Assembly: GCA_019638235.1 (NCBI GenBank)
Contig: JAHBUE010000001.1
Coordinates: 604,492 to 668,491, forward strand
DNA: 64,000 nt
Direction of reading: 5' to 3'
Source of the DNA: Cyclobacteriaceae bacterium
Lineage (GTDB): Bacteria > Bacteroidota > Bacteroidia > Cytophagales > Cyclobacteriaceae
The translations under genes were made by a program, and so were the position numbers. Below are positions 36,925 to 55,007 of this stretch, one piece after another; the stretch's first letter is position 1; each line of letters opens with the position of its first letter. The notes under the pieces were generated by a model, which was not told where the DNA came from, searched no databases, and saw nothing but the letters and a program-made list of their open reading frames with translations.

Positions 36925-37010
36925 TACCTCGGGCGGGACTTGAACCCGCACGGCTATTACTAGCCACAGGATTTTAAGTCCTGCGTGTCTACCAATTCCA
37001 CCACCAAGGC
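36925..37010 (-). tRNA. tRNA-Leu (anticodon UAA)
   Basis: The reverse complement folds by hand. Acceptor is GCCTTGG/CCGAGGT (two G-U pairs). Anticodon stem CAGGA/TCCTG carries loop CTTAAAA. Long variable arm, T arm GCGGG-TTCAAGT-CCCGC, and no encoded CCA. Confidence 0.9.
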
Positions 37011-37028
37011 AGGTTGTGAAACCTCTTT

Positions 37029-37061
37029 CAAAAAACAACCCCTCTCTTTATTGGAGAGGGG
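37029..37061 (-). terminator. hairpin plus T-run between tRNA-Gly and tRNA-Leu (terminator or processing element)
   Basis: On the minus strand, CCCCTCTC-loop-GAGAGGGG (8 bp stem) is followed by TTGTTTTTTG. Confidence 0.5.
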
Positions 37062-37064
37062 TTT

Positions 37065-37138
<74 letters not shown>

Positions 37139-49949: not shown

Positions 49950-50711
49950 ATGCGCCCTTACATATTGGCCGAATCAAACTGGAAACAAATTAAAGACCTC
50001 GAAGTTGACGTAGCTATACTTCCCTGGGGAGCGTGCGAAGCGCACAACTATCATTTGCCTTACGCAACCGATATTATTGAGTCGGAACACATTTCAGCAG
50101 AGGCTGCACGGTTAGCCTGGGAACAAGGCGCGAAAGTAATGATGTTGCCGTGCGTTCCGTTTGGTGTAAACACGGGTCAGTTTGATGTAAAGCTGGATAT
50201 GAACATGAACCCGTCAACACAATTTCTTGTGTTAAAGGATTTGATTGAGGTACTCAACCGGCAGCGTATTTACAAGCTTATTATTTTAAACAGTCATGGC
50301 GGAAATGATTTCAAACCGATGATACGCGAACTGGGGCTTGTTTTCCCGGATATGTTTATCACTACGTGCAATTGGTTTCAGGCTATTGACCAAAAACAAT
50401 TTTTTGAAAACAAAGACGACCATGCCGGTGAAATGGAAACCAGCCTGATGTTGTATTTACGCCCCGACCTCGTGCTGCCGCTAACCGAGGCAGGCGATGG
50501 CGCGGCAAAGAAATTCAGGTTCACGGCCATCCATGAGGGCTGGGCCTGGGCCGAGCGCAAGTGGACACAAGTTACAGCGTCAACCGGTGTAGGCGACCCG
50601 CGCAAAGCCTCACGCGAAAAAGGTGAAAAATACTTTAAAGCGGTTACCGAAAAGGTGGCACGGTTTCTTACTGAAGTGGCAAAAACGAAAAGCGGGGAAC
50701 TTTATGAGTAA
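49950..50711 (+). CDS. creatininase family amidohydrolase
   Basis: ILPWGACEAHNYHLPY and NSHGGN motifs. The ATG at 49950 is preferred over 49917, which overlaps the upstream gene. Confidence 0.85.
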   Translation: MRPYILAESNWKQIKDLEVDVAILPWGACEAHNYHLPYATDIIESEHISAEAARLAWEQGAKVMMLPCVPFGVNTGQFDVKLDMNMNPSTQFLVLKDLIEVLNRQRIYKLIILNSHGGNDFKPMIRELGLVFPDMFITTCNWFQAIDQKQFFENKDDHAGEMETSLMLYLRPDLVLPLTEAGDGAAKKFRFTAIHEGWAWAERKWTQVTASTGVGDPRKASREKGEKYFKAVTEKVARFLTEVAKTKSGELYE

Positions 50712-50726
50712 GAAATGGGTATTGCT

Positions 50727-50896
50727 GTTAACGTTTTGTGTTTATTTAGTTGCGGGATTAGGAGGGTTTAAAAATGAAGCGCAGCGGAATGTTAAACCCG
50801 ACCTGCTGCAAAATTGTCCCCCGTGACCGAGCTGCATTTGAAACATACACTTAAATTTAACACTACACCCCGCAATTGCATAAACTTTTTGTTGCC
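50727..50896. repeat. about 170 bp palindromic element, copy A (attC-like or MITE-like)
   Basis: By eye about 85 percent identical to 54063-54231. Ends are GTTAAC...GTTGCC. Arms contain GTTTAT../..ATAAAC and TTGCGGG/CCCGCAA. Internal hairpin is GGGTTTAA (50764-50771) / TTAAACCC (50792-50799). It starts 16 nt after the creatininase-family gene stop and ends 11 nt before the stop of the 50908 gene. Confidence 0.8.
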
Positions 50897-50907
50897 GGCT
50901 GTGCCCG

Positions 50908-51216
50908 TTACCAATTTGTCGTGACGGAACTTACTTTCTTGTCCGTCCCGAAATTGATTTTGATTCTATTTAACTCAATTGAAGTCGAGTCCCCGAGGTC
51001 TGGATATCTGTCCGTAATTTCTTTAAAGTCCTCAAATGTCAGTTTACCCTTAATGATTTGAGAAACCTGTTCCAGGTCATGTTCGGTGTCTTCGTAGCCT
51101 TCTCTCATGTAAGTTATGGTCACACCTTGGTCAAGTATTGAGTACAACAGAAATAGTGTCGTCAAGATGAAAACTGTCAATAGTGTCCAAAACACTGTTC
51201 TCCATTTATTTTTCAT
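50908..51216 (-). CDS. hypothetical single-pass membrane protein
   Basis: The ORF is open to 51249. The Met at 51216 gives MKNKWRTVFWTLLTVFILTTLFLLY (TM segment) and avoids a 20 nt overlap with barstar. No recognised domain. Confidence 0.5.
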   Translation of the reverse strand: MKNKWRTVFWTLLTVFILTTLFLLYSILDQGVTITYMREGYEDTEHDLEQVSQIIKGKLTFEDFKEITDRYPDLGDSTSIELNRIKINFGTDKKVSSVTTNW

Positions 51217-51229
51217 TGGTCGTTTTACT

Positions 51230-51562
51230 TTAGTCAGCAGATATTGCAATCATTGCTTGTTCGTTGTTCTCAAGTTTTCTGTAATTGACAAAAGCTGAAC
51301 ACTCTAAAAGAGCTAAGTATATGTCGTTGCACCTTTCTTTGAAGCTTTCACTGTTACGAATTTCAATTACCAACGTGTCAGTTTTCTTAATCCAAACTTT
51401 AGTCATCCCGTTTTCAGGCGCGTCAATGTCGGTCATGCAGTCAATCCACGCATTCATATTTCGTCCGTAAAAGTCGGGGAACCCTAAAGTAATTTTGAAA
51501 ATGTCGTGGAATGAGTCCCAGTCGGTTATTAAGTCCGCGTTAATACTTATTCTTTTAATCAT
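51230..51562 (-). CDS. barstar family ribonuclease inhibitor
   Basis: 110 aa. I..DLITDWDSFHDIFKITLGFPDFYGRNMNAWIDCMT aligns with the barstar core (LH..L...L.LP.YYG.NLDALWDCLT). Confidence 0.8.
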   Translation of the reverse strand: MIKRISINADLITDWDSFHDIFKITLGFPDFYGRNMNAWIDCMTDIDAPENGMTKVWIKKTDTLVIEIRNSESFKERCNDIYLALLECSAFVNYRKLENNEQAMIAISAD

Positions 51563-51912
51563 TTAGCTCGTCAGTCGAATTTGTCCCCCGGCCATTACCG
51601 TCAACGTTCAGTATTTGTGCCGCCTGCGGTTTACGGAGCGCGGTACTTTCACCCGTGACGAAACAAAGTTAAGAAGACTAAACTACAAATTTACCGTGTC
51701 CCCGTGAAAGTGGCTGGGAAATTAAACAGGTTGTAAATATAGTTTGGTGATTTGAATTTTGCATTGTTGAACCGAAACGGAAGCAGGCTCTGCTGAGGAG
51801 CAACCTGCCAGGGATAGGTTCTCCCGACAGAATGTCGATAATCGAAAAGGATGTTGTTAACTCAATGTCCTTTTCTTTTGATATTCTGGAGGGCCAATGT
51901 CTAAAAAAACCT

Positions 51913-52030
51913 TTATGCCGTATATGCTGCCGGAGTTTGATAGCCAAGCGATTCATGCTCCCGAACAGTATTGTATTCTTGCAGCCATGCATCTGTTAGT
52001 GGCTGTGCTTTCCTTTTTGTCAATGCCGTT
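51913..52030 (-). pseudogene. C-terminal remnant of an rve (DDE integrase-core) transposase
   Basis: The minus-strand frame reads ...KRKAQPLTDAWLQEYNTVREHESLGYQTPAAYTA-stop. This matches the conserved W...YN..RPH.SLGY.TP C-terminus of IS3/IS481-type transposases. No upstream catalytic part is present. Confidence 0.5.
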
Positions 52031-52034
52031 TTTT

Positions 52035-53141
52035 TTAGTTGAGTGTAAAGTCCGCAAGTTCATAATTAGCATTTCGTCCGCCTTCTCCTGTTTCTTGCAA
52101 AATGCCTTTTTTTATTAGGTCCTTTATGTCACGCAATGCCGTGTCTGTTGAAACTTTGGTAATTTTTGCCCATTTTGATGATTGTAGTTTTCCGTCAAAT
52201 CCGTCAAACAACATATTCAGAATGATGCGTTGGCGTTCGTTGATCGTTGTGTTTTCGTACAGTTTCCAAAATTCGGCTTTGCGTAAAATGCGTTGCGTAG
52301 TGTTTTCGGTGGCAAGCATTGCGTTTTTCAGACAATGTAAAAACCATTCAAGCCATTCTGTAATGTTGCCTGTGCTGTGTTGCACTTTTTGCAATACTTC
52401 GTAGTAGCGTTTGCGTTCTACCAAAATTTGGCTTGACATACTGTAAAAACGTTCGCCACTACTTTCGGCACGGGCAAGCAACATATCGGTTATAGCCCGT
52501 CCAACACGTCCGTTTCCGTCATCAAATGGGTGAATAATAATAAACCAAAAGTGAGCAATAGCGGCTTTTATTACGGGGTCAAGTTGATTGTCATTATTGA
52601 ACCAATCCAAAAACTTGTCCATTTCGGCTTTTACCAACTTTGGCTTTACTGCTTCATAGTGTATTTTCTCTTTGCCCATTGCACCCGAAACTACCTGCAT
52701 TTCACCTGTTCGGTATTTACCAACTTCTATTTCATAAGGTCCGCTGTACCCTGTGGGAAAAAGTGCTGCGTGCCAACCAAACAACCGTTTTTCAGTTAAA
52801 GGTAAAGTGTAGCGTTGAGTCGCATCAAGCATCATTTCTACCACGCCTTCAATGTGGCGACTGCTTGGAACAAGTCCTGCGGTGTTAATCCCCAAACGCC
52901 TTGCAATGGAAGAACGCACTTGGTCGTAGTTGAGCAACTCGCCTTCAATTTCGCTTGATTTTACAACGTCTAAGGTAAGAGCCGTAAGCGTAGCTTCTTC
53001 TTTGGCAGAAAAGCCCAAAGCATTCATTTGTCCAATGATTTTGCCCTGCATTAGTTTTACTTCGCCAAATACAACATTTATGGCTTTGTCTTGCCACAAA
53101 AAGTTTGTCCAATTTTTATGCTCGTAAATGTATTTTGCCAT
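52035..53141 (-). CDS. Fic family protein (class II, N-terminal inhibitory motif, C-terminal winged-helix-like region)
   Basis: 368 aa with the Fic motif HPFDDGNGRVGR. An N-terminal SSEIEG fits the (S/T)xxxE(G/N) inhibitory helix. Confidence 0.9.
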   Translation of the reverse strand: MAKYIYEHKNWTNFLWQDKAINVVFGEVKLMQGKIIGQMNALGFSAKEEATLTALTLDVVKSSEIEGELLNYDQVRSSIARRLGINTAGLVPSSRHIEGVVEMMLDATQRYTLPLTEKRLFGWHAALFPTGYSGPYEIEVGKYRTGEMQVVSGAMGKEKIHYEAVKPKLVKAEMDKFLDWFNNDNQLDPVIKAAIAHFWFIIIHPFDDGNGRVGRAITDMLLARAESSGERFYSMSSQILVERKRYYEVLQKVQHSTGNITEWLEWFLHCLKNAMLATENTTQRILRKAEFWKLYENTTINERQRIILNMLFDGFDGKLQSSKWAKITKVSTDTALRDIKDLIKKGILQETGEGGRNANYELADFTLN

Positions 53142-53350
53142 TGCTCAAAATAGGATGCGGCAAATGTACGAATTATTTGCCGCAGATTTGCGGTGATAAT
53201 TTTATTTTTTCACCGCATAATTAGACCTAATGGCGAAAAATGGGCTGTTTTTGCTGTTTTTTTATTGTCAATATTTTTTCCATTCAAAACTTTTGAAACC
53301 ACTTTCTGTCGCCCGCCATTACGCCAAACCCGGTGTTGCCAGCCGTTGCA

Positions 53351-54046
53351 TTAGTCCACATATTTTAGTTTGTCTCCGCTAAATCTTGCTTCTACAACTT
53401 TGTTTCTAAGTCCTTTAGTTTCTTTTTTTATCCTTGTCCATACGTCTGATGGTACATTTTTGTCAAAATGCAAACTAATGATTGCTGTGCTGTCGGTGAT
53501 TATTTCATTCATTTTGTTTATGTCTGTCATTTTAATGAAAATATCATTGTCTAACTCTAATTGAACTGAGTCACTCCATTCATTTTTTCTCTTAGGCTGT
53601 CCGACTAAAATATTTTTAATATTAGTGTCTGAAATGTCATAACATGAACCATCACAGTCCATAAGTTCGATGTTTAAATTGCTTGTTGAATAGAGATTTT
53701 TTTTCTTATCCCTTAATTCAGCCTTATAAAATTCAATCGTTTCATTTCCTGCATCATGTTCAAAAAATAAAGTGACCTTGTCCTTAGTCGCCTTAAGGTC
53801 ATAAAACGGAAACATTCTCGGAGAACTTCTTATAAAAGAATTGTCTTTTAAGTCTATAATTATAGAGTCGTGTTGGTTAGTAAATATATTGTCGGTGTTT
53901 AGCAATACTAAGGTGTCTCTAATGTCTATTGTGTAAAACTGTCCGTTGTTTTCAGTTGAAACATAATAGCCTTCTATATTCTCGGTCTTGGTTTTACAAA
54001 ATGTTGTCAGACAGAAAAGGCCGAGTATTATGAAAATAGTCCTCAT
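53351..54046 (-). CDS. hypothetical lipoprotein, strongly AT-rich
   Basis: The Met at 54046 gives MRTIFIILGLFCLTTFC (lipobox). The ORF is open to 54067. A spot count on one 60 nt row gives about 30 percent G+C. No recognised domain. Confidence 0.55.
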   Translation of the reverse strand: MRTIFIILGLFCLTTFCKTKTENIEGYYVSTENNGQFYTIDIRDTLVLLNTDNIFTNQHDSIIIDLKDNSFIRSSPRMFPFYDLKATKDKVTLFFEHDAGNETIEFYKAELRDKKKNLYSTSNLNIELMDCDGSCYDISDTNIKNILVGQPKRKNEWSDSVQLELDNDIFIKMTDINKMNEIITDSTAIISLHFDKNVPSDVWTRIKKETKGLRNKVVEARFSGDKLKYVD

Positions 54047-54062
54047 TTTTTTTGCAATGGCT

Positions 54063-54231
54063 GGCAACGTTTGTGTTTATGCAGTGCGGGGAATTGGAGG
54101 GCTTAAAAATGAAGCGCAGCGGAATGTTAAGCCCGACCTGCTTCGAGCTGTCCCCCGTGACCGAACTACATTGTGAAACATAAACTTTAATTTAACACTA
54201 AACCCCCGCATTGCATAAACATTTTGTTGCC
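54063..54231. repeat. about 170 bp palindromic element, copy B (attC-like or MITE-like)
   Basis: GGCAAC (54063-54068) ... GTTGCC (54226-54231). The arms GTTTATGCAgTGCGGGG / CCCCGCAtTGCATAAAC pair with one mismatch. Internal hairpin is GGGCTTAA (54099-54106) / TTAAGCCC (54127-54134). Confidence 0.8.
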
Positions 54232-54265
54232 GGCTGGCATCAGTCCAACTTTAAATTTATTGTCC

Positions 54266-54904
54266 TTATTCTTTAGTCTTTGTTGTCAAGGGCTTGAGTG
54301 TCGTGTCACCAAGTTGTTCTGCGATAAACAGAATTAAACTATATTCTTCAACAGTCGTTGGTTCTACGTCTATTTCTTTCGAGTAAAATCCATGTGCAGT
54401 AAGTCCTGCCACTCCTTTAATTACTTTTGGCGTCTCGGGTCTAACTTTTAAAAGAGTCTGTTCTTCATTTATTTTCTCAAATGTCAAAATGAATGGTGTT
54501 CGGAACTCAAGTGCTTGTCCACCTGCATAATAAATTGGCGAATACCAATATTGTCCAAATGAGTGAATGTATATGTCGTTCTCGGTATTCGGTTTTTCAA
54601 AATGTTCTTTTCCAAACAACGCATTACCAGCAGTCTCTGCATTAAATGAAACAGTCATTTTATGTTCTCCGTTACCCATGTCAACATTAAAGTAAAATAT
54701 ACTTGATTGGTAAAATGGACTATTAATTTCTTTGTGCTCGTTAAAAGAGTTCAAAATTGTCTGCCTTAACTTGTCCAGAGGCACATAAAATATATGTTCA
54801 GTCGGATTGATCTCAACCAACTCCTTTGTCTCAAGTCTTTTAAGATTGTCACAACTTAAAAAAATTGCCGTAATGATTAATGTTATTAAAGTCCTTCGTG
54901 TCAC
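54266..54904 (-). CDS. hypothetical lipoprotein, AT-rich
   Basis: 212 aa with a GTG start and a lipobox (AIFLSCDN). No recognised domain. Confidence 0.55.
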   Translation of the reverse strand: MTRRTLITLIITAIFLSCDNLKRLETKELVEINPTEHIFYVPLDKLRQTILNSFNEHKEINSPFYQSSIFYFNVDMGNGEHKMTVSFNAETAGNALFGKEHFEKPNTENDIYIHSFGQYWYSPIYYAGGQALEFRTPFILTFEKINEEQTLLKVRPETPKVIKGVAGLTAHGFYSKEIDVEPTTVEEYSLILFIAEQLGDTTLKPLTTKTKE

Positions 54905-54947
54905 TTCACTGAATTTTGTTTATGGCTTGCCGGCAACTAGCGTATAT

Positions 54948-55007
54948 GTCTAACAAACCTACACAAATACGCCCTATTCTGCTGGCTTTGTGCAGGTTTT
55001 GTTGCAA
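54948..55007. repeat. 60 nt imperfect hairpin with AAC...GTT base, immediately 3' of the PLP-enzyme gene
   Basis: The plus strand reads GTCTAACAAACCTACACAAA-loop-TTTGTGCAGGTTTTGTTGC. The arms pair over about 17 positions with one bulged base and one mismatch. On the minus strand the distal end reads GTTAGAC. Confidence 0.5.

Follow-up and report, generated by a model that had tools for sequence, protein, structure and literature searches.

Sites resembling integron attC in a Cyclobacteriaceae contig point to an integron-like gene-cassette system of the Cytophagales

Two related elements in a Cyclobacteriaceae contig

The stretch of DNA analysed here (the window) comprises 64,000 nt of contig JAHBUE010000001.1 from a Cyclobacteriaceae bacterium (assembly GCA_019638235.1), and positions are given in window coordinates unless a locus label (L0xx) stands before them. 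The window carries two copies of one element, termed A (50727-50896) and B (54063-54231), of which A sits between the 3′ end of a plus-strand creatininase-family gene and a run of minus-strand open reading frames (ORFs), and B between two minus-strand ORFs (Table 1). The evidence presented below makes it very probable that these elements are attC-type recombination sites of gene cassettes, belonging to an integron-like system of the Cytophagales (Bacteroidota).

The presence of the two copies had been noted in an earlier sequence-only reading, and comparison of the sequences confirmed that they align over ~170 nt with 85% mean column identity (some flank included). Their cores, extending from an invariant AAC to an invariant GTT, measure 163-164 nt, and the functional stem reaches ~15 nt beyond the core into each flank. 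On the minus strand, copy B reads CGGCAAC / AAAAT / GTTTATGCAaTGCGGGG ... CCCCGCAcTGCATAAAC / ACAAAC / GTTGCCa. In copy A, the proximal box is again CGGCAAC, and the distal box, read directly as GTTAAC, is non-complementary to it, as had been remarked before. The internal hairpin of the two copies differs at exactly two positions, which pair with each other (GGGTTTAA/TTAAACCC in A versus GGGCTTAA/TTAAGCCC in B), so that the pair of matching changes claimed by the sequence-only reading was recovered in the A/B alignment.

An internal 20-mer of the element was present twice in the window, with 0.00 occurrences expected from shuffles. Folding of both strands of copy B as DNA, which had been suggested as a check, yielded -29.7 kcal/mol for the plus strand (z = -3.8, with none of 200 shuffles folding as well) and -27.8 kcal/mol for the minus strand (z = -2.9). 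The core of B combines an unpaired spacer of 6 x 5 nt, an L stem of 17 bp that contains one G.T wobble, and the hairpin GGGCTTAA/TTAAGCCC, in which the window plus strand is the folding ("bottom") strand and the minus strand the cassette sense strand. A search of the whole window against Rfam 15 at the gathering threshold matched only two tRNAs elsewhere, and a search of positions 50500-54500 at E = 10 yielded no match on elements A and B. The two tRNA genes, which are adjacent (36925-37138, minus strand), measure 73 nt and 86 nt, a long variable arm being present in the second, and are unrelated to the elements. A small peptide starting at the internal ATGAAGCGC was considered as well, and was rejected because a 1-nt indel between the copies shifts the frame.

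The elements belong to a family that forms co-oriented arrays

When the internal 20-mer GAAGCGCAGCGGAATGTTAA was searched as an exact match against a collection of species-representative genomes, 45 loci were retrieved, 44 of them in genomes with Cytophagales-type record titles and one in a Lacibacter metagenome-assembled genome (MAG). Carriers were found among Cyclobacteriaceae, Ohtaekwangia, Chryseosolibacter, Chryseotalea, Algoriphagus, Flammeovirgaceae and Microscillaceae. An nhmmer profile built from 44 copies revealed that most of these 45 loci are arrays, in which the copies share one orientation and are spaced 0.5-1.5 kb apart, with up to 8-9 copies per 8 kb.

The copies fall into length classes of ~185, 145 and 100 nt that have common ends and a differing centre, the core measuring 100-190 nt overall. 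Conservation starts at an invariant AAC-G and stops at an invariant GTT, AAC being present at 102/102 and GTT at 117/117 located ends. The box consensus is Y-AAC and GTT-R-K-N-N-G-C, the first positions of which fit the RYYYAAC/GTTRRRY consensus of attC sites and the later ones do not. Both caveats of the sequence-only reading, which concerned the length of the elements and the partial fit of their boxes, therefore apply to the family as well, since the core alone spans 100-190 nt and flanks add to it. Its proposal that the elements have the R''-spacer-L''...L'-spacer-R' layout of attC sites was borne out by the invariant AAC and GTT, by the 6 x 5 nt spacer, and by a 17-bp L stem that covaries (see below).

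The ORFs between the elements lie on one strand, opposite to the profile, with a single ORF per interval, and are extremely diverse. All-against-all BLAST of 252 inter-element ORFs yielded no cluster larger than three, the only relevant pair consisting of two recombinases, and revealed no transposase recurring beside the elements. Judged by its sequence organisation, the layout of the family is the anatomy of a cassette array.

Cassette ends are complementary across the intervening gene

The boundaries of the presumed cassettes were examined by comparing the 18 nt after GTT with the 18 nt before AAC. For element n versus element n+1 (63 adjacent pairs), these flanks formed 12.0 Watson-Crick and 1.6 G.T pairs of 18, with a mode of 14-16, versus 6.1 Watson-Crick and 2.9 G.T pairs for the two flanks of the same element, and 5.9 and 2.9, respectively, for random flank pairs. 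Both ends of each inter-element segment are thus mutually complementary, and the two sides of one element are not. Complementary cassette ends of this kind are the defining consequence of integron-type recombination, and the opposite of target-site duplication. A crossover at GTT/AAC parts the core from the outer half of the R' box, leaving the next cassette to complete the outer box. The non-complementary boxes of copy A had been attributed to strand exchange at GTT, and this attribution is upheld by the pairing of flanks n and n+1 and by the limits of a duplicated cassette.

This duplicated cassette, which encodes a protein of 189 aa, is present at two places on chromosome OZ257123.1 (L012 and L032). 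There is no similarity to the left of the CAAC of the left element. From AAC|G onwards the two copies are 100% identical through the core, GTT, flank, ORF and opposite flank up to the next AACGTT, after which the next core differs by four substitutions and one gap, and divergence is full past GTTG. These limits indicate that the mobile unit extends from the AAC|G of one element to the AAC|G of the next. In cassette polarity, each ORF has its own site at the 3′ end, as in integrons. The same polarity follows, independently of the duplicated cassette, from the finding that there is no element core between the recombinase gene described below and the first cassette. Read along the cassette strand, the order is TT, a flank X of ~15 nt, the ORF, the complementary flank X', AAC, a 5-nt spacer, the L'' arm, the variable centre, the L' arm, a 6-nt spacer and G. 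The assignment of the minus strand of the window as the cassette orientation, made in the sequence-only reading, agrees with this order, since the ORFs lie on the minus strand and the recombinase-proximal junction places the site 3′ of the ORF.

These boundaries also bear on whether the elements could be MITEs (miniature inverted-repeat transposable elements), whose terminal inverted repeats would account for the palindromic ends. The inverted termini of ~27 nt, the length of ~170 nt and the presence of several copies per genome would all suit a MITE. Neither target-site duplications nor transposase-linked copies, either of which had been named as the sign of an ordinary MITE, were found, however: the flanks are inverted complements across the intervening genes instead of direct repeats, no transposase recurs nearby, and the duplicated unit consists of an element plus a gene bounded at AAC|G. 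Moreover, the copies are co-oriented, at gene-sized spacing, and each lies directly 3′ of an ORF. Given the missing target duplications, the flank logic and the orientation of the copies, the MITE reading was rejected, its probability being practically negligible.

Two further features of the cassettes were observed. About a third of them carry a TGTCC motif, which reads GGACA on the cassette strand and stands at a constant distance of 16-17 nt past GTT, a few nt ahead of the start codon of the cassette (26 + 9 of 102, at offsets -21 and -20; e.g. L018, L008 and L021). The motif also occurs at window positions 51583-51587, lies outside the paired R stem, and could be a translation signal or an accessory binding site. 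In addition, a conserved noncoding module of ~215-230 nt stands directly beside one element in nine genomes, at L011, L017, L019, L026, L031, L038, L003, L040 and L044 (e.g. L017:1040-1260 and L019:291-520). Its flank is always GTTGGTAGCTGTAGGGCCC, the sequences beyond the module are unrelated, and it contains a hairpin of ~18 bp (GCACACTTATTGACTGGC...GCCAGGCAATGTGTGTGC) with compensatory changes in L003, L040 and L044. The module had no Rfam match and in L019 forms the 3′ end of a 3.4-kb cassette, not the head of an array, and its initial reading as attI, as a known RNA or as a target of the tRNA or tmRNA kind was consequently dropped.

Covariation places the fold on the strand antisense to the cassette genes

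The search for additional copies, proposed earlier as a means of looking for further covariation, uncovered it in both helices. For 43 distinct cores, RNAalifold predicted the internal hairpin and two stems, namely the L stem of 17 bp and one of 2 bp. Of the 28 pairs, 20 had changed on both sides, and 94.9% of the cells were paired, versus 75.9% in shuffles and 40-44% with slid partners; none of 500 shuffles reached the observed value on any covariation measure. The earlier suspicion, raised from a single pair of changes, that the fold is under selection is therefore well founded. On the profile strand, G.T cells outnumbered A.C cells by 119 to 11, indicating that the fold is selected on this strand, which corresponds to the window plus strand, is antisense to the cassette ORFs, and is the "bottom" strand of integron nomenclature.

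Conserved extrahelical bases on one strand, another feature that the sequence-only reading had proposed to look for, were not encountered at the canonical positions. Instead, two near-invariant G.T wobbles were found: one in the L stem (42/43) and one in the R stem (G in 107/117 opposite T in 100/102), one on either side of the unpaired 6 x 5 nt spacer and ~10-11 bp away from it. A minority of R stems have one extra base, with TCG opposite CA. Since such wobbles occur only in the folded single strand, and are ordinary pairs in the duplex, they argue for the fold and not the duplex as the functional form.

In the 185-nt class, the interior (alignment A3 columns 30-90, corresponding to window positions 54092-54140 and 50757-50804) contains invariant single-stranded TAGGAG and CGACC motifs that flank a covarying hairpin with at least six different stem sequences. 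This interior is missing from the 145-nt and 100-nt classes.

Since two helices covary strongly, single-stranded motifs of the interior are conserved and the elements stand 3′ of ORFs, a structured RNA might in turn be considered, acting as a stabiliser or terminator in the 3′ untranslated region of the cassette genes or as an antisense small RNA. The strand asymmetry (119:11) nevertheless puts the fold on the ORF-antisense strand, so that the mRNA would carry A.C mismatches; copies A and B have no T run after the stem, and the Rfam search gave no match on them even at E = 10. Such a role would also leave unexplained the flank complementarity across cassettes, the cassette boundaries and the junction 3′ of the recombinase gene. 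We consider an RNA function in place of the recombination site very unlikely; the conserved interior may have an added RNA or regulatory role beside that as cassette site.

A recombinase without the IntI-specific domain heads the arrays of relatives

Six-frame translations of the 45 loci and of the window were searched with an IntI1 sequence that served as a probe only. Two loci matched, L005 and L019, and only this one type of recombinase was found. Its best NCBIfam match was TIGR02249 (integron integrase), with 220.8 bits, below the cut-off of 265, followed closely in score by archaeal XerA (219.7 bits). The best match in the Protein Data Bank (PDB) was the integron integrase VchIntIA (2a3v; E = 7.9e-40), with an alignment in two pieces. 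The recombinase has 25 aa where VchIntIA has 68, and gaps of ~31 and 12 aa relative to IntI1, which means that the IntI-specific additional domain (around patch III) is absent. The core motifs common to IntI are retained, including the C-terminal SPLD. Homologues of this recombinase, with 53-77% identity, are numerous and are annotated in their sources as XerD or as generic tyrosine recombinase.

We compared seven recombinase loci (L005, L019, L046, L047, L048, L051 and L053), which all have the same order behind the stop codon: a 9-10-bp palindrome (ATATAGGCCA...TGGCCTATAT or a variant of it), 6 nt, GTT (GCT in L051), and a flank to which the sequence before the first element's AAC is complementary. 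Elements follow in the orientation of the gene in six of the seven loci, the contig of L048 ending 170 nt past the gene. At L046, which is on the same chromosome as L001, at least eight elements follow the recombinase. The interval between recombinase and first cassette contains no element core. A co-oriented array or a single cassette, with an insertion site next to the recombinase gene, is thus present in relatives, an arrangement that the window, with no recombinase, does not have.

Several other features of these loci deserve mention. Relative to IntI1, the recombinase has an N-terminal extension of ~90 aa (residues 1-90 of P0001; L005:3442-3711, minus strand), which is common to L005 and L019, carries the motif FPGR..S.T..C.Y, and may be an extra DNA-binding domain. 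The palindrome behind the gene is perfect over 9-10 bp, conforms to ATATARGNCA-loop-TGNCYTATAT (ATCGGAGAC/GTCTCCGAT in L019) and was located at L005:2570-2607, L046:11165-11200 and L019:3995-4035, as well as in L047, L048 and L053; it may belong to the insertion site, terminate transcription of the recombinase gene, or do both. At L051, an insertion sequence (HTH_Tnp_1 and rve / rve_3 ORFs; L051:12729-13898) lies inside the cassette array 3′ of the recombinase. Finally, recombinase contigs (L048, L049 and many homologues on 1.2-5 kb) are often very short or end less than 200 nt past the stop codon, suggesting that the repeated sites break short-read assemblies and that arrays are therefore under-represented in MAGs.

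The recombinase helps to weigh two further explanations. According to the first, a canonical integron is present, of which the elements are the ordinary attC sites; its standard IntI lies elsewhere in the genome, and the adjoining Xer-like recombinase is incidental. Geometry, flank logic and arrays are indeed of the integron type, and the IntI search was confined to the array loci and the window. In this search, the IntI1 probe found the short recombinase type only, and at 7/7 recombinase loci the first cassette junction lies at most ~40 nt from the stop codon of the short recombinase. Moreover, the sites are without the canonical extrahelical bases, and their R stem measures ~15-18 bp instead of 7 bp. 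The literature bears on both sides of this matter. Reviews list Bacteroidota among the phyla with integron detections, without detail. The IntegronFinder 2.0 survey, by contrast, reported one complete integron in Bacteroidetes (in Salinibacter ruber), where previously there had been In0 only, and a 2024 preprint on sedentary chromosomal integrons placed Bacteroidota among the clades in which integrons had previously not been found. Taken together, a canonical integron is clearly unlikely. In a literature search that did not cover all journals, we found no description of Cytophagales arrays or of an integron integrase without the additional domain, and the widespread Cytophagales system is apparently undescribed.

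According to the second, the elements are duplex sites of the Xer/dif kind (AAC-N5/6-GTT at each end), exchanged like pdif modules and involving no folded strand. Each end of an element, with AAC, 5-6 nt and GTT, would make a plausible duplex core site, the recombinase is as near to XerA, XerC and XerD as to IntI, and exchange at the left-hand sites would yield the same cassette boundaries. Duplex recognition provides no reason, however, for the covariation of the 17-bp L stem, for the complementary cassette ends of ~15 nt or for the conserved G.T wobbles. Furthermore, the pdif sites of Acinetobacter plasmid modules alternate in orientation, unlike the co-oriented sites described here. We regard duplex exchange as extremely unlikely, and hold to attC-type sites that would be recognised as folded strands.

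The window holds a short orphan array

Against this background, the features of the window (Table 1) can be read as an array that starts at a junction (54937), continues with cassette 1 and its site B, then with the 231-aa, Fic and 104-aa ORFs and a dead site, and ends with the Barstar and 113-aa ORFs and site A. The cassette ORFs are all on the minus strand and closely packed against the sites.

Table 1. Features of the cassette array in the window (positions in window coordinates)
Feature	Positions	Strand	Description
Element A, attC-like core, last site of the array	50730..50893	+	Identified by sequence; nhmmer E = 8.5e-54
Cassette ORF, 113 aa	50908..51249	-	Weak sub-threshold matches to Imm58 and DUF2140; element A is its 3′ site
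Cassette ORF, 110 aa	51230..51562	-	Barstar-family inhibitor, Pfam E = 2.5e-15
Truncated third element	51580..51700	+	nhmmer match at 51638-51703, E = 0.0013, plus direct reading
Cassette ORF, 104 aa	51678..51992	-	No family; 3′ end overlaps the truncated element
Cassette ORF, 368 aa	52035..53141	-	DUF4172 and Fic/DOC (Pfam)
Cassette ORF, 231 aa	53351..54046	-	ATG at 54046; signal-peptide-like N-terminus; no Pfam family; same gene on contig L050
Left flank of B, TTTGCAATGGCTGGC before AAC	54048..54065	+	5′ end of the next cassette; R' extension
Element B, attC-like core	54066..54228	+	Invariant AAC to invariant GTT; nhmmer E = 8.9e-64, folds, covariation
Right flank of B, GCCGGCTGGCATC...	54229..54246	+	Forms the 3′ end of cassette 1; in cassette orientation, the R'' extension
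Cassette 1 ORF, 212 aa	54266..54904	-	Putative lipoprotein, no Pfam family; element B is its 3′ site
Array entry junction	54919..54960	+	ATGGCTTGCCGGCAAC (AAC at 54935-54937), then TAGCGTATATGTC in place of an element core

The flanks of both A and B agree with the flank consensus of the family. The right flank of B is complementary to positions 54919-54934, at the far end of cassette 1, by six Watson-Crick pairs, a T.T, the expected G.T wobble and two further pairs, and its left flank fits the left-flank consensus A-T-K-G-C-NNN-Y-AAC, with the ATG of the 231-aa ORF 19 nt away. On the cassette strand, the entry junction reads GACATATACGCTA|GTT and thereby resembles the TATAT-6 nt-GTT sites found 3′ of the recombinase genes in L005, L019, L046, L047, L048 and L053, from which it differs in being without a palindrome and without a recombinase. 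The truncated third element retains TGTCC, the left flank, AAC (51603-51605), G, the spacer and part of the interior (CCCGTGAC...AAACTACAAATTTAC), and is devoid of the right arm and of GTT. The combination of junction, sites and remnant marks the segment as a short orphan array between core genes; it is probably an old and inactive relic, movable, if at all, only by a recombinase supplied in trans. The outer neighbours encode a D-serine-dehydratase-like protein, a gamma-glutamyltranspeptidase, nucleoside phosphorylases, UvrA and a lytic transglycosylase.

In the L stem of element A, TTA stands opposite TGC, where relatives have TTA/TAA or GCA/TGC (compare L013 and L027 in alignment A3), so that this stem is, on the face of the alignment, partly decayed or chimeric. 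A left arm of one class joined to a right arm of another was also observed in L041:1666-1851, L037:3008-3201 and L035:7580-7767 (row "L035_197" of A3). The same mixed state in element A (50745-50760 versus 50875-50890) results in the L-stem mismatches. Because arms of mixed class are not expected from crossover at AAC|G alone, they suggest that homologous recombination or gene conversion may have taken place between sites.

As regards cargo, toxin- and immunity-type genes such as Barstar and Fic are typical of the cassettes of chromosomal integrons. The gene for the Barstar-family inhibitor (51230-51562) adjoins the 113-aa ORF with weak immunity-protein matches (50908-51249), and no barnase-like partner was identified.

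Discussion

The elements share with integron attC sites, and especially with the long and homogeneous ones of sedentary chromosomal integrons such as the Vibrio cholerae repeats (VCRs), their nature as imperfect palindromes located 3′ of each promoterless cassette ORF. As in those sites, the outer boxes contain invariant AAC and GTT, 5-6 unpaired nt set the R boxes apart from the L boxes, the centre varies and is sometimes branched, and the crossover is at the GTT/AAC triplet. Also in common are the co-oriented arrays with highly diverse cargo, the high similarity of sites within a lineage, and the selection of folding on the ORF-antisense strand. They differ from attC sites in the core of 100-190 nt, canonical attC sites being ~57-141 nt long, a range that the window cores exceed, and in the R stem of the circular cassette, which is ~15-18 bp instead of 7 bp. 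Further differences are the two near-invariant G.T wobbles ~10-11 bp either side of the spacer, where canonical extrahelical G/T bases are lacking, the boxes that agree only partly with RYYYAAC/GTTRRRY (GTT-R-K-NN-G-C), and the host clade, Cytophagales.

Similarly, the recombinase is like IntI, and VchIntIA (2a3v) in particular, in its best PDB and NCBIfam matches, in the core motifs including SPLD, and in the placement of its gene at the head of the array. Unlike IntI, it has no IntI-specific domain, has ~90 aa extra at the N-terminus, scores below the cut-off of TIGR02249, and is annotated as XerD or generic. With Xer and archaeal XerA it has in common that it is a "simple" tyrosine recombinase with a catalytic domain of similar length and an XerA score of 219.7 bits. 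Xer, however, acts on one chromosomal duplex site for dimer resolution, and has no cassette arrays with palindromic sites.

As to gene order, arrays co-oriented with the integrase gene are known from the "inverted" integrons of Spirochaetes and Chlorobi. The same arrangement has been described for archaeal integrons, the insertion site of which lies just downstream of the integrase gene. The window itself, with two intact sites less than 4 kb apart, a remnant and no recombinase within 64 kb, is reminiscent of clusters of attC sites without an integron integrase (CALIN), from which it differs in that its sites are of the non-canonical Cytophagales type.

We propose the following course of events, in which the use of a folded single strand as substrate, the exact bond that is cleaved and activity itself are what we infer. 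The ORF-antisense strand (the plus strand of the window) would fold on itself, with the L arms forming the 17-bp stem, AAC/GTT and the flanks forming the R stem, and the 5/6-nt unpaired spacer remaining between the two. Two stems around an unpaired spacer would make the fold a mimic of the core site of a tyrosine recombinase, with two inverted GTT-bearing arms. A tyrosine recombinase of the Xer/IntI kind would then cut and exchange strands at or beside the invariant AAC|G, and cassettes would be excised as circles and inserted directly 3′ of the recombinase gene. The excised circle would have the full R stem of ~15-18 bp, and in arrays the R stem would be held by conserved positions only (R/Y, GC, A-T and G.T). 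It may be speculated that the G.T wobbles replace extrahelical bases as the mark of the strand.

A number of observations weigh against regarding the elements as cassette sites of an integron-like system. First, integrons are in practice defined by an integrase with the extra domain, which is held essential for the recombination of folded attC sites and is required by detection software, and the recombinase found here is without this domain. A classification of tyrosine recombinases describes the insertion as "not fully conserved" in the integron-like subgroup, yet as essential for function. Second, the sites have no extrahelical bases at the canonical T/G positions, the L-stem arms of the main classes being of equal length and without a bulge. 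Third, the conserved interior of the 185-nt class hints at a putative optional extra function that falls outside the cassette-site explanation. Within the window, moreover, no recombinase was detected in 64 kb with the IntI1 probe and P0001 as queries at E = 10, so that linkage provides no argument for activity there; the intact sites number only two, with 3.2 kb and five ORFs between them; and the flank of A pairs only moderately with that of the remnant (9 Watson-Crick pairs and 1 G.T of 15), for which reason the segment between A and the remnant is not claimed as an intact cassette. Lastly, the evidence is comparative throughout: family membership, arrays, flank logic, cassette boundaries, covariation, strand asymmetry and recombinase linkage are all read from sequence.

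The elements behave as cassette sites in the functional tests of cassette logic and depart from canonical integrons in two features, namely the extrahelical bases and the IntI-specific domain, and we remain strongly inclined towards attC-type sites of an integron-like system. As to what kind of system this is, we give an even chance to a separate and so far unrecognised integron lineage of the Cytophagales, in which an Xer-like integrase without the IntI domain would recognise site and strand by means of the two symmetric G.T wobbles and the long R and L stems, with no role for extrahelical bases.

The main interest of these findings lies in the family that they reveal, the copies in the window being themselves an orphan relic. 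The evidence points to cassette arrays with full integron logic in at least seven named families or genera of Cytophagales, associated with a recombinase without the additional domain. Cultured carriers exist (Chryseosolibacter indicus, Chryseotalea sanaruensis and Algoriphagus taiwanensis), which makes the hypothesis directly testable. If confirmed, integron-type gene capture would extend to a major environmental phylum that, with integrons defined by the extra domain, has been described as having next to none, and current surveys would be missing a whole class of arrays together with their cargo (here Fic, Barstar and numerous small secreted proteins with no known function). The system would also serve as a natural experiment in folded-strand recognition by a tyrosine recombinase where extrahelical bases are lacking, and would be relevant to how integron integrases arose from Xer-like ancestors. 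Should the lineage prove to be separate, folded-site recombination and cassette arrays would either be older than the IntI insertion or have arisen from Xer-like ancestors on more than one occasion.

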